Origin: a virus
Taxonomy: Duplodnaviria; Heunggongvirae; Uroviricota; Caudoviricetes
Reading direction: 5' to 3' (one strand)
Length of the DNA stretch: 5,055 bases
IMG/VR virus record: IMGVR_UViG_2706794666_000005
Below the pieces are notes generated by a model. It searched no databases and was not told where the DNA came from. It saw only the letters and a list, made by a program, of their open reading frames with translations. Made by a program: the position numbers and the translations under genes. Below are positions 1 to 5,055 of the stretch, in pieces; positions within the stretch are counted from its first letter, which is position 1; each line of letters begins with the position of its first letter.

Positions 1-3
1 TTC

Positions 4-36
4 AGGCCATCAGAGTTTTGCTGATGGCCTTTTTTC
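4..36 (+). terminator. Rho-independent terminator hairpin
   Basis: Perfect 10-bp inverted repeat, aggccatcag (4-13) pairing with ctgatggcct (21-30), 7-nt loop agttttg, followed by tttttcttt on the + strand. The reverse strand has no T-tract after the stem, so it is oriented for + strand transcription. Confidence 0.65.
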
Positions 37-92
37 TTTCCGATAGCACAGGTCTGTCGAAAAAAGGCCCCTATTAAGTTGTCAAGCATGTT

Positions 93-422
93 ATGACCCC
101 TGCGGGGTATAAAATGTATCAGATGGAAAAAATATCAACAGGCATTGCCTACGGCACCCTTGCCACTGTCGCCAGACAAATTAACCCGTACATCAAAGTC
201 GATATACCGGAAACAACGCGCGGCGCTCTTTACTCGTTCGTTTACAACGTGGGCGCTGGCAATTTCAGAACATCGACGCTTCTTCGCAAAATAAACCAGG
301 GCTATATCAAAGGCGCATGTGACCAGCTATGTCGCTGGACATATGCTGGCGGTAAGCAATGGAAAGGGCTGATGACCCGTCGTGAGATTGAGCGTGAAGT
401 CTGTTTGTGGGGGCAGCAATGA
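93..422 (+). CDS. Phage GH24 (T4-type) endolysin, C-terminal fragment only; probably N-terminally truncated and catalytically inactive
   Basis: The 109-aa product from about residue 23 onward ([48 protein letters not shown]...[13 protein letters not shown]) matches, from memory, the C-terminal part of phage 21 / DLP12-type lysozymes of about 165 aa. The first 22 residues ([22 protein letters not shown]) do not. An in-frame TAA at 75-77 prevents any upstream extension. The stop TGA (420-422) overlaps the Rz ATG (419-421) as ATGA, the classic R/Rz junction. Confidence 0.6.
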
Positions 423-883
423 GCAGAGTCACCGCGATTATCTCCGCTCTGGTTATCTGCATCATCGTCTGCCTGTCATGGGCTGTTAATCATTACCGTG
501 ATAACGCCATTACCTACAAAGAGCAGCGCGACAAAAACGCAAGAGAACTGAAGCTGGCGAACGCAACCATTACTGACATGCAGCAGAGACAGCGTGATGT
601 TAATGCACTCGATGCTAAATACACGAAGGAGTTAGCTGATGCGAAAGCTGAAAATGAAACTCTGCGCGCTGATGTTGCCGCTGGTCGTCGTCGGTTGCAC
701 ATCAAAGCAGTCTGTCAGTCAGTGCGTGAAGCCACCACCGCCTCCGGCGTGGATAATGCAACCAGCCCCCGACTGGCAGACACCGCTGAACGGGATTATT
801 TCACCCTCAGAGAGCGGCTGATGACGATGCAGATGCAACTGGAAGGGGCACAGGAGTATATCCGCACTCAGTGCATTAAGTAG
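419..883 (+). CDS. Rz: Rz-like i-spanin (inner-membrane spanin subunit)
   Basis: 154 aa from ATG 419: [34 protein letters not shown]... has an N-terminal transmembrane helix, a coiled-coil-like periplasmic region and a C-terminus closely resembling lambda Rz as I recall it. I prefer ATG 419 to the ORF-track GTG 407 because of the ATGA overlap with the upstream stop. Confidence 0.9.
639..821 (+). CDS. Rz1: Rz1-like o-spanin (outer-membrane lipoprotein), nested in the +1 frame of Rz
   Basis: 60 aa, [60 protein letters not shown]: signal peptide with lipobox LVVVGC, then a proline-rich mature peptide, near-identical in pattern to lambda Rz1. AAGGAG at 625-630 sits 8 nt upstream of ATG 639. Entirely embedded in Rz in a different frame. 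Confidence 0.88.
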
Positions 884-925
884 CCTTTTTATCGTGGTAA
901 ACATTTCGCAGGGTATGAGGTATTT

Positions 926-1276
926 ATGCCATCACTAATCCCACGTGCCTGCCGTAAGCGTGGATGTGCAGGTACAACCACAGACAGTTCGGGTTACTGC
1001 GATAAACATCGCGGTGAAGGCTGGGTGCAGCACCAGCGCGGACTGAGCCGCCACCAGCGTGGCTATGGCTCAAAATGGACGGTGATTCGTGCCCGTATTC
1101 TGAAGCGCGATAAAGGTCTGTGTCAGTTGTGTCTGCGTGTCGGTGTGGTGAGCGAGGCGAAAACCGTCGACCACATCATCCCGAAAGCGCATGGCGGAAC
1201 AGACGCAGACAGCAACCTGCAGAGTCTGTGCTGGCCCTGCCATAAAGCGAAAACAGCGCGCGAACGAATCCGGTGA
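926..1276 (+). CDS. HNH endonuclease, phage packaging-associated
   Basis: 116 aa. C-terminal HNH motif (CQLC...VDHIIPKAHGGTDADSNLQSLCWPCHKAK) with paired Cys zinc ligands, and a Cys-rich N-terminus (CRKRGCAGTTTDSSGYCDKH). GAGG at 917-920 lies 5 nt before ATG 926. Sits immediately upstream of the terminase genes, as in HK97-like phages. Confidence 0.9.
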   Translation: MPSLIPRACRKRGCAGTTTDSSGYCDKHRGEGWVQHQRGLSRHQRGYGSKWTVIRARILKRDKGLCQLCLRVGVVSEAKTVDHIIPKAHGGTDADSNLQSLCWPCHKAKTARERIR

Positions 1277-1294
1277 TAATTATTCTCACTTGTA

Positions 1295-1358
1295 GGGAGG
1301 GGCGGGGCAAATCCCTGTGACCTGACGTCTTCCGGACTGCCCGCCCCATCGTTTTTTT
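1295..1358. other. GC-rich dyad-symmetry element between HNH and terS; candidate cos region or terminator-like structure
   Basis: GGGGCGGG (1299-1306) is the inverted complement of CCCGCCCC (1340-1347), about 33 nt apart. Palindromes GACGTC (1324-1329) and TCCGGA (1331-1336) lie between the arms, and a T7 run follows at 1352-1358. The position matches where cos sits in HK97-like genomes. The function is inferred, not demonstrated. Confidence 0.3.
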
Positions 1359-1397
1359 ATACCCGCGAAAAATGAAATTTAACCAGGAGTGCCGCAT

Positions 1398-1892
1398 ATG
1401 GCTGGAACGGCGGGGCGTTCCGGGCGTCGCCCCAAGCCAACGGCGCGCAAGGCGCTGGCCGGAAACCCCGGCAAGCGAGCCCTGAACAAAGATGAACCTG
1501 TTTTTACGCCCATCAAAGGTGTTGAGCCACCAGAGTGGTTCGCTGAAGAAGATCTCCCTCTCGCCACGATCATGTGGCAACTGACAACCAAAGAACTCTG
1601 CGGTCAGGGCCTGCTGTGCGTGACTGACCTGGCGGTACTTGAGCGGTGGTGCGTGGCCTATGAGTTCTGGCGACGTGCCGTGAAAAATATTGCCATACAG
1701 GGCAACACCATCACCGGTGCAATGGGCGGCAGGGTCAAAAATCCGGAGCTGACCGCCAAAAAAGAACAGGAGTCCGAGATGAGCAGCACGGGGGCAATGC
1801 TCGGACTCGACCCCAGCAGCCGCCAGCGTCTGATTGGCCTGGCGGGGCAGAAGAAAGCCACTAACCCGTTTCTGAAAATTATCGAATCATGA
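1398..1892 (+). CDS. Terminase small subunit, P27 family
   Basis: 164 aa from ATG 1398, with AGGAG at 1384-1388 nine nt upstream. The basic N-terminus with the GNPGKR motif ([28 protein letters not shown]) is typical of P27-family TerS. The stop overlaps the terL start as ATGA (1889-1892). I reject the ORF-track GTG 1389 because it has no spacer from the SD. Confidence 0.88.
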
Positions 1893-3622
1893 GCCGGAAA
1901 TCTTACCCCAACGTAAATGCTGCAAATCAGTATGCCCGGGATGTCGTGCGCGGAAAGATTGTTGCCTGCCAGTTTGTGATTCAGGCCTGCCAGCGCCATC
2001 TTGATGACCTGATGGCGGAAAAAAGTAAGTCGTTTCGTTACCGCTTCGACAAGGACCTGGCTGAACGGGCCGCGAAATTTATTCAGCTGTTGCCGCACAC
2101 CAAGGGGGAGTGGGCATTCAAACGGATGCCCATCACGCTGGAGCCGTGGCAGCTATTTGTGATCTGCTGTGCGTTTGGCTGGGTCAATAAAGGCACCCGG
2201 TTGCGCCGCTTCCGGGAGGTGTACACCGAAATCCCCCGTAAGAACGGCAAATCAGCAATCTCTGCCGGTGTTGCCCTGTATTGTTTTGCCTGTGATAACG
2301 AGTTTGGCGCGGAAGTGTATTCCGGTGCCACGACAGAGAAACAGGCGTGGGAAGTCTTTCGCCCGGCGCGACTGATGTGTAAACGCACACCCATGCTGAC
2401 GGAAGCGTTCGGGATTGAGGTTAACGCCTCAAACATGAACCGTCCGGAGGATGGCGCGCGGTTTGAACCGCTGATCGGCAACCCAGGTGATGGTTCATCA
2501 CCCCACTGTGCCGTGGTTGATGAATATCACGAGCATGCCACCGATGCGCTTTATACCACAATGCTTACCGGGATGGGGGCGCGACGTCAGCCACTGATGT
2601 GGGCCATCACCACCGCCGGGTACAACATTGAGGGGCCGTGCTACGACAAGCGGCGGGAAGTCATCGAGATGCTCAACGGCTCGGTGCCTAACGATGAACT
2701 GTTCGGGATCATCTATACCGTTGATGAAGGTGACGACTGGACCGGCCCGCAGGTGCTGGAAAAAGCCAATCCAAATATTGGCGTGTCGGTTTATCGCGAA
2801 TTTTTGTTAAGTCAGCAGCAGCGTGCGAAAAATAACGCCCGTCTGGCAAACGTCTTTAAAACAAAACACCTCAATATCTGGGTGTCGGCGCGTTCGGCGT
2901 ATTTCAACTTGGTGAGCTGGCAGAGCTGCGAGGATAAATCACTGACCCTTGAGCAGTTCGAGGGGCAGCCGTGCATTCTGGCCTTTGACCTGGCGCGTAA
3001 GCTGGATATGAACAGCATGGCGCGACTTTATACCCGCGAGATTGACGGTAAAACGCATTACTACAGTGTGGCCCCGCGTTTCTGGGTACCGTATGACACG
3101 GTGTACAGCGTCGAGAAAAATGAAGATCGACGGACAGCCGAACGCTTTCAGAAATGGGTGGAAATGGGCGTTCTGACCGTTACCGATGGTGCGGAGGTGG
3201 ATTATCGCTACATCCTCGAGGAGGCCAAAGCGGCGAACAAAATCAGCCCGGTCAGTGAGTCACCCATCGACCCCTTCGGGGCGACCGGGTTGTCACATGA
3301 CCTTGCTGATGAAGACCTGAATCCCGTCACTATCGTCCAGAACTTCACCAATATGTCCGATCCGATGAAAGAGCTGGAAGCAGCGATTGAATCGGGACGT
3401 TTTCATCATGACGGCAATCCCATCATGACCTGGTGTATCGGCAACGTGGTCGGCAAAAACATGCCGGGTAACGATGATGTGGTGAAACCCGTCAAAGAGC
3501 AGGCGGAAAACAAAATCGATGGTGCAGTTGCGCTGATTATGGCGGTTGGCAGAGCCATGCTGTACGAGAAAGAAGACACGCTGTCTGACCACATTGAGTC
3601 CTACGGGATCCGCTCGCTTTAA
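1889..3622 (+). CDS. Terminase large subunit (ATPase/nuclease)
   Basis: 577 aa. Walker A-like IPRKNGKS at nt 2231-2254, Walker B-like CAVVDEYHE, and a C-terminal nuclease-like region with conserved acidic residues ([24 protein letters not shown]). Size and position fit a Terminase_1-type TerL. Translationally coupled to terS. Confidence 0.92.
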
Positions 3623-3633
3623 CTGAGGTAATT

Positions 3634-3816
3634 ATGATCATGCTGATTCTCGCGCCTCTGGTGGGCGTGCTGGGTGCGCTTTTGCTGGCGTATGGTGCCT
3701 GGCTGATTTATCCCCCGGCGGGTTTTGTTGTTGCCGGGGCGCTGTGCCTGTTCTGGTCGTGGCTGGTGGCGCGATATCTCGACCGTACACGGCAGTCTGT
3801 CGGCGGAGGTAAATAG
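3634..3816 (+). CDS. Small hypothetical membrane protein (two predicted transmembrane helices)
   Basis: 60 aa, [60 protein letters not shown]: two hydrophobic helices and a basic C-terminal tail. GAGGT at 3625-3629 lies 4 nt before ATG 3634. Codon usage is host-like (ctg, gcg, ggt, gtg). Its last codons carry the SD for the downstream portal start. Confidence 0.6.
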
Positions 3817-4972
3817 TGTTCTTTTCGGGATTATTTCAACGAAAAAGCGATGTGCCGGTGACCACGCCAGCAGAACTGCTGATGCTATCGGGCTGTCATA
3901 CGACACCTATACCGGAAAGCGGATCAGTAGCCAGCGGGCCATGCGCCTGACGGCGGTCTATTCTTGCGTCAGGGTGCTGGCAGAGTCTGTTGGTATGCTG
4001 CCCTGCAGTCTCTACAAAATCAGCGGTACCCTGAAAACACGGGCGGTGGATGAACGACTGCATAAGTTGGTTTCGGCAAAACCTAATGGCTACATGACAC
4101 CGCAGGAATTCTGGGAGCTGGTTATTGTCTGCCTGTGTCTACGGGGGAATTTTTACGCCTACAAGGTAAAGGCACTGGGAGAAGTGGTGGAGCTTCTTCC
4201 GATAGATCCGGGCTGTGTGGAACCGAAGCTGAACAGCCAGTGGCAGCCGGTTTATCAGGTGACGTTTCCGGATGGTTCCGTGGATGTGTTGACCCAGAAT
4301 GAAATCTGGCATGTGCGCACCCTGACGCTGGATGGACTTGTCGGGCTGAATCCCATTGCGTATGCGCGTGAGGCCATTTCACTGGCAGCGGCAACCGAGG
4401 AGCACGGTGCCAGGTTGTTTAGTAATGGTGCGGTGACATCCGGTGTGTTGCGTACGGAACAAAAGCTCACGCCGGATGCTTACGAGCGTCTGAAGAAAGA
4501 TTTTGAGGAGTGTCACACGGGGCTTGGCAATGCTCACCGCCCGATGATTCTGGAAATGGGGCTGGACTGGAAGTCGATGGCGCTGAACGCCGAGGACAGT
4601 CAGTTCCTGGAAACCCGCAAGTTTCAGCTGGAAGAAATCTGTCGTCTGTTCCGGGTGCCGTTGCACATGGTGCAGAACACCGATCGCGCCACCTTCAACA
4701 ATATCGAAGAGCTGGGGCTGGGATTTATCAACTATTCACTGGTGCCGTATCTGACCCGCATCGAACAGCGGATCAACACCGGACTGGTACGAAAAAGTAA
4801 GCAGGGCGTTTATTACGCCAAATTTAACGCCGGGGCGTTACTGCGCGGGGATATGAAGTCCCGTTTTGAAGCCTACGCCACCGGGATCAACTGGGGAATT
4901 TACTCTTCCAATGACTGCCGCGACCTGGAAGATATGAATCCGCGTCCCGGTGGTGTAATGCCGATCAGTTAA
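3816..4972 (+). CDS. Portal protein, HK97 family; start and body are in different frames as read (apparent 1-nt frame break near 3890-3893)
   Basis: The body (frame 2, to stop 4970-4972) has HK97-portal hallmarks: RLTAVYSCVRVLAESVGMLPCSLYK near the N-terminus and FLETRKFQLEEICRLFRVPLHMV. The best start signal is GTG 3816 in frame 0, with a perfect GGAGG (3805-3809) 6 nt upstream, overlapping the upstream stop as TAGTG. Frame 0 gives MFFSGLFQRKSDVPVTTPAELLMLSG... but hits TGA at 3948-3950. The span is not a multiple of 3. Confidence 0.8.
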
Positions 4973-5004
4973 GGATCAGTTGACCGATCCAGTGGCTGTG
5001 TAAG

Positions 5005-5039
5005 AATCCGGAAACGCTCACTTGTTTCCGGATTTTTTT
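5005..5039 (+). terminator. Rho-independent terminator downstream of portal
   Basis: atccggaaac (5006-5015) pairs perfectly with gtttccggat (5024-5033), 8-nt loop gctcactt, followed by a T-run (5034-5039). The T-tract is present only in the + orientation. Confidence 0.7.
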
Positions 5040-5055
5040 ATGCACATTGGACAGG

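Follow-up and report, generated by a model that had tools for sequence, protein, structure and literature searches.

The lysis cassette at the start of the 5,055-bp window (by which is meant the whole stretch of DNA analysed) has lost most of its holin gene and the 5' end of its endolysin gene. This loss is best read as a real lesion specific to one isolate, which left a dead holin-RrrD remnant in a defective prophage, and a probability of about 0.6 is assigned to this reading. The open reading frame (ORF) at 93-422 is a non-functional gene remnant rather than a short endolysin. The window is the complete draft contig CWSX01000201.1 of the Shigella sonnei assembly GCA_001248295.1, so the lesion, which is confined to the terminal 158 nt, falls within the outermost 8% of a short draft contig. 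The finding is one of ordinary prophage decay, or possibly of an assembly artefact, and is known already in kind.

The 109-aa product of the ORF was deposited as CSE54249.1 under the name 'bacteriophage lambda lysozyme [Shigella sonnei]', and CWSX01000201.1 was the sole record of that exact protein found by exact-sequence look-up. A Pfam match to PF00959 covers residues 22-100 of the product and positions 47-125 of the 125 in the profile (E = 2e-25), in agreement with the claim of an earlier note on this DNA that only the C-terminal part of a phage lysozyme is kept. At the DNA level the match to E. coli and Shigella rrrD begins exactly at base 158/159. A megablast search of 5,426 complete E. 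coli genomes gave thousands of matches to the rrrD-Rz region, every one of them beginning at base 158, and no match spanning window 1-900. No complete E. coli genome covers 80% or more of the contiguous stretches 1-170 or 58-160.

The 22 codons that lead into the lysozyme part had been described in the earlier note as unrelated sequence. They are indeed unrelated to lysozyme, but they have an origin: codons 8-22 (bases 114-158) reproduce the start of the neighbouring class II holin gene, its first 15 codons, at 100% identity, and codons 1-7 come from an end fragment of an IS110-family, ISEc20-like element. The in-frame TAA at 75-77, upstream of the ORF, and the ATG at 93 both stem from the same ISEc20-like scrap, with the ATG overlapping the transposase stop on the opposite strand. 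The DNA upstream of the rrrD part can be assigned in full to the holin start, the IS scrap and native intergenic DNA, and the idea of a frame-shifted catalytic triad within it is rejected on that ground. A scan of the window with Rfam returned zero matches.

The extent of the loss was defined against reference loci (L009-L016) on closed 4.8-4.9-Mb chromosomes, which were retrieved via the window's Rz protein and include CP104423.1, CP049169.1, CP022457.1 and CP110404.1. The 5' part of these loci holds a Q antiterminator, cargo ORFs, a 71-aa PF04971 holin and a 165-aa PF00959 lysozyme; the middle holds the identical Rz, HNH, TerS, a 577-aa TerL, a 60-aa ORF and a 343-aa portal fragment; and the 3' part holds IS4 and an IS3-family element followed by bamE-recN-nadK. 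Holin and RrrD are both intact in the closed chromosomes at the locus equivalent to the window. The upstream elements whose presence the earlier note had left for later study were recovered from these relatives, namely Q, the 71-aa holin and, by pattern scan, a promoter-like site after Q.

BLAST aligned window 158-5055 with L010 9740-14637 at 99.96% identity with 2 mismatches, and relative to the closed loci three junctions lie within 100 nt (Table 1). The 11 native nucleotides before the holin ATG (L010 9281-9291, GGGGGCGGGAT) have given way to 54 nt that consist of A6 and the ISEc20-like scrap. The IS/holin and holin/rrrD junctions show a 1-nt overlap each. The deletion fuses holin T15 to RrrD L79. 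The join is in frame, since the two genes use different frames and 403 equals 1 mod 3. The suspicion that a deletion had removed the 5' end of the endolysin and possibly the holin is supported by the 403 bp missing relative to the closed loci, which include most of the holin.

Table 1. Features of the lysis region of the window, with coordinates in the window and their counterparts in closed chromosomes
Feature	Coordinates	Strand	Evidence and remarks
Native sequence upstream of holin	1..59	+	100% to L010 9222-9280 and other closed loci
Intrinsic-terminator-like hairpin and T-tract	4..40	+	10-bp stem with 6 G-C pairs, 7-nt loop; predicted
A6 run	60..65		With the IS scrap, stands in for native 11 nt GGGGGCGGGAT; side-by-side comparison with L010
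ISEc20-like IS110-family 3'-end scrap, ~47 nt	66..113	-	94-96% identity to annotated ISEc20 / IS110-family transposase ends of E. coli
Fused ORF, 109 aa	93..422	+	7 aa IS scrap, 15 aa holin, 87 aa RrrD
Holin codons 1-15, dual-start motif MYQM	114..158	+	100% to L010 9292-9336, 71-aa PF04971 holin
Deletion junction, 403 bp gone	158..159		L010 9337-9739 missing (holin codons 16-71 and RrrD codons 1-78)
RrrD codons 79-165 and stop	159..422	+	PF00959 positions 47-125; D127Y (base 303), R136C (base 330)
Rz (i-spanin), intact	419..883	+	PF03245, E = 2.8e-52; ATGA overlap (419-422) with fused ORF
Rz1 (o-spanin lipoprotein), inside Rz in another frame	639..821	+	PF06085, E = 6.4e-20

The junctions were sought widely. 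The 27-mer across the rrrD junction was absent from IMG/VR, the GTDB representative genomes and the JGI metagenomes, the IS/holin junction from IMG/VR and the JGI metagenomes, and the A6/IS junction from IMG/VR and the GTDB representatives. A search of a 5.8-billion-cluster protein collection with the first 70 residues of the ORF found no partial ORF with the junction and returned only other kinds of decayed rrrD.

The functions lost with the deleted DNA can be read from the intact allele, which aligns over its full 165 aa with E. coli RrrD (PDB 4ZPU, E = 1.6e-109) and with phage 21 R (3HDE). Intact RrrD of L010 has a Gly/Ala-rich N-terminal SAR segment (AVAAAIGGGAVAIASVLITG) and the residues E35-X8-D44-X5-T50, which fit the E-X8-D-X5-T triad motif of lysozymes as given for SAR endolysins (PMC9239132). 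Triad and SAR segment were both encoded in the deleted RrrD codons 1-78 and are lost for that reason, as the earlier note had held of the catalytic residues and the signal. The window ORF does not contain a full GH24 domain, its alignment to the intact allele beginning at L79, and coverage against full-length endolysins of the RrrD and phage 21 R type is therefore C-terminal only. It also lacks the GH24 catalytic triad, and the 22-residue leader stands in the place of the SAR segment. Of the class II holin or pinholin (PF04971) only codons 1-15 of 71 are left, and the 15 retained residues amount to at most half of the first transmembrane segment. If made at all, the fused product would be cytoplasmic and catalytically dead, unable to reach or cut peptidoglycan.

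Rz and Rz1 form a two-component spanin pair with complete domains. They are intact and coupled to the fused ORF through the ATGA, as had been noted earlier, and an exact-sequence look-up found the Rz protein to be identical in 4,291 blocks of the collection, closed chromosomes included. With a dead remnant for an endolysin and no holin, the cassette would probably be unable to lyse despite its intact spanins. The same expectation had been voiced in the earlier note, and the loss of holin, SAR segment and triad argues for it. In gene order and overlaps the cassette is of the phage 21 / DLP12 type, in which the S21/EssD pinholin and the R21/RrrD SAR endolysin are accompanied by Rz/Rz1 (RzpD/RzoD); it differs from that type in being without holin codons 16-71 and RrrD codons 1-78. 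CSE54249.1 is thus a chimeric remnant which should not be treated as a lysozyme, whatever its deposited name.

The prophage that carries the cassette is a long-standing defective remnant, in a lineage that otherwise keeps its lysis cassette whole. Its portal gene is a pseudogene: the frame that opens at 3816 gives way, through a frameshift inside the first ~25 codons, to another from about 3827-3890, and similarity to an intact portal of 413 aa breaks off at base 4954, which corresponds to residue 380. The sequence that follows, window 4956-5055, is 100% identical to the stretch just upstream of the IS4 transposase gene in the closed loci, where the ATG of that gene corresponds to window base 5041; it is read as the probable left end of an IS4 element cutting the portal. 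The portal frameshift and the IS4 truncation are found in a 100% identical state in the closed chromosomes. Since the IS elements there are followed directly by bamE-recN-nadK, the prophage is without any head or tail genes. The prophage being already defective, a statement that the cassette 'cannot lyse' concerns a cryptic remnant and not a viable phage. The remaining part of the window, at 926-3622, encodes an HNH endonuclease, a P27-family small terminase and a large terminase, which together make up an HK97-like packaging module. The window TerL (577 aa) is 36% identical to that of E. coli prophage L006 and the lysis cassette (158-1345) ~98%, a case of module mosaicism.

On the favoured reading the ancestor would have had the terminator followed by the class II holin (71 aa), the SAR endolysin RrrD (165 aa) and Rz/Rz1. 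The present arrangement could have arisen from it in one complex illegitimate-recombination or template-switching event, or in two or three successive events. A cryptic prophage would be under no selection for its lysis genes, and Shigella sonnei is known for fast decay driven by IS elements. ISEc20 is one of 12 IS types in S. sonnei 53G, and it is in S. sonnei that IS and pseudogene profiles diversify fastest (PMC7373316). The biological weight of the lesion is small, as a cryptic prophage can be expected to lose holin and endolysin function when its host is an IS-rich pathogen with a degrading genome.

A substantial caveat is that the lesion may be an artefact, since the window is a whole short-read contig, the lesion is terminal, the closed loci are intact and the junctions were found nowhere else in the collections searched. 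According to this explanation the true genome would be intact and the first ~158 nt would be a chimeric path or tip, put together from the upstream region, an ISEc20 end and a holin start during assembly or library preparation, at the edge of a repeat common to at least three prophage lysis cassettes. It is judged a less likely explanation than a real lesion, though one with a considerable chance of being right. The anomaly occupies the very tip of the 5-kb short-read contig, which alone has the 109-aa ORF and the three junctions, and genomes that have been closed are intact at the locus. The pieces are of the size of reads or k-mers (45, 47 and 59 nt) and an A6 takes the place of a G6 run. 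Three junctions together with a G6-to-A6 change in the terminal 160 nt make an unusual pattern for a very clonal species, and this counts against a real lesion.

The alleles at the contig end bear on the same question. The 2 mismatches to the closed chromosomes over 4.9 kb, at bases 303 (D127Y) and 330 (R136C), correspond to the allele found in a second prophage of S. sonnei (L019-L021), which has a 156-aa Rz, a DedA-family gene and a Terminase_3. By base 470 the window is back to the allele of the first prophage (A-type), and is thus a hybrid within 170 nt. The contig end runs through a repeat common to at least three prophage copies, and a hybrid of two of them at this place indicates that the assembler was working through a collapsed repeat there. 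Such a mix of two prophage alleles within 170 nt is typical of a collapsed-repeat consensus and favours the artefact. The IMG/VR contig L023 has the same hybrid and an ordinary rrrD across base 158. The hybrid is either a mixed consensus from a collapsed repeat or the result of gene conversion. Y127 and C136 were considered as a marker of the window's locus and rejected, because other S. sonnei assemblies have them in a different prophage. In one of the second-prophage loci (L021, about 3210-4530, minus strand) the holin is broken near its 3' end by IS2 with a 5-bp duplication, GTAAG, and rrrD is full length.

Against an artefact stands the nature of the joins. De Bruijn graphs and overlap-based gap closers cannot make 1-nt joins unless there are reads that contain them. 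With overlaps of only 1 nt, shared k-mers are unlikely to have produced a false join, and junction-spanning reads would be expected to exist. The mosaic of ~100 nt with its flanks is too long for one short read, so that several overlapping reads would be needed, and chimeras of low coverage are usually clipped. The upstream region, the holin start and rrrD keep their native order and orientation, as they would after deletions in situ. The contig starts 59 nt to the left of the first junction, which fits a unique junction bordered by a repeat (k ~60). These points are consistent with the real lesion preferred here. Where short-read contigs end in multi-copy prophage modules, anomalies in their last 100-200 nt nevertheless need confirmation at the level of reads before they are given an evolutionary interpretation.

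The IS material in the lesion is slight. The scrap comprises the last 8 transposase codons, the stop (complement of 91-93) and ~25 nt that reach to or near the right end of the element. Membership of ISEc20 or of IS110 would entail a DEDD transposase gene and both ends, and in the window there are only ~47 nt of the right end. Unlike ISEc20, window 66-113 has no transposase and no left end and is not a mobile element; lacking the ISEc20 left end, it has no bridge-RNA region. In the scrap, ~13 nt from the element end, there is a perfect TTGACA (complement of 80-85) that faces outward and resembles the -35 half of a circle-junction promoter. The A6 at 60-65 sits where the closed loci have a G-run (GGGGGCGGGAT). 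G-runs likewise adjoin the E. coli copies of ISEc20 (L007, L008), in the form CCCGGGGGG(T/G)|GCCCC, and the native G-run site may for that reason resemble an ISEc20 target.

A more specific account of the scar is that it is real and came from a single template-switching event, in which a resident ISEc20 stretch was copied into a G-run resembling ISEc20 flanks. It would then be the footprint of aberrant IS110-type recombination or repair, and the fusion would still be coupled to the spanins and maybe expressed. This account is thought very improbable in its particulars.

The hairpin at the start of the window has the pattern and the fold of an intrinsic terminator, that is a G+C-rich hairpin with a U-tract. 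The hairpin at 4-30 with the T-tract at 31-40 has a predicted energy of -17.3 kcal/mol (z = -4.2), a stability reached by 0 of 200 shuffled sequences. The same hairpin is present in the closed locus (L010 9225-9251), ~35-40 nt before the holin ATG, and bases 1-59 also precede class II holins in the E. coli prophages L003 and L004; bases 114-158 likewise match the start of the holin in E. coli prophages. The earlier note was right that a strong terminator-like element lies here, but wrong in placing it at a breakpoint, as it has its native place ahead of the holin. In L010 it lies 2.2 kb downstream of Q (6681-7067) with several ORFs between. The speculation that it could be a tR'-like element close to the late promoter fails on this distance, a lambdoid tR' being found directly downstream of pR' and Q, where the pattern scans do not place the window hairpin. 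Directly after Q the pattern scans found a promoter-like site (L010 7072-7101; TTGACC, 18-nt spacer, TATATT, 10/12 matches) and a terminator-like hairpin (L010 7163-7179), and this position makes the pair the better candidates for pR' and tR'. Judged by pattern and position, the window's predicted terminator is native to the cassette, lies away from the breakpoint and is not a tR'. Most likely it would end the cargo region that separates Q from the lysis genes, and Q-modified polymerase would normally be expected to read through it.

The same evidence bears on the proposal that the window records a breakpoint at a tR'-like terminator, at which foreign DNA replaced the upstream lysis module. 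The strong terminator at 4-30 and the abrupt end of rrrD similarity at 158 would suit such an event, but the terminator and bases 1-59 are 100% native to the cassette, another promoter/terminator-like pair occupies the position directly after Q that this one, 2.2 kb further on, does not, and the interval between terminator and rrrD consists of the holin start and IS scrap with no foreign module. The proposal is accordingly regarded as highly doubtful.

Least probable of all is that the fused ORF encodes a small protein that is expressed in a new, non-catalytic role, for example in binding peptidoglycan or interfering with endolysin, to the benefit of the host: the fusion is in frame, the holin start codons and the ATGA coupling to Rz are kept and the C-terminal lobe of GH24 is complete, but the ORF is known from one contig only and is not conserved, it has no export signal, about 1/3 of deletions are in frame by chance, the native ribosome-binding region has been swapped for IS-derived sequence, and with a terminator just upstream the only obvious source of mRNA is Q-dependent late transcription in a silent remnant.

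Dead remnants of rrrD are nothing unusual: prophages of E. coli and Shigella commonly contain N-truncated rrrD ORFs of ~100-120 aa that begin with a foreign leader. Examples of decayed rrrD include read-through fusions with IS2 (P0017, P0019, P0022) and an internal deletion (P0053). The window differs from the IS-disrupted alleles in that the left partner of the fusion is the holin's own 5' end, and in that its sole IS material is the 47-nt scrap, which lies 45 nt upstream of the rrrD junction. An IS at the rrrD junction itself was considered and rejected, there being no IS sequence at that point. In E. coli O111 an IS1203/IS629 element in rrrD (P0024; L025 1-90) meets the gene at the same nucleotide as the window junction, …GGTTCA|CCTTGCC. 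With ~10 decayed alleles inspected this is taken as a mild coincidence; alternatively the site may be a hot spot for insertion or breakage.
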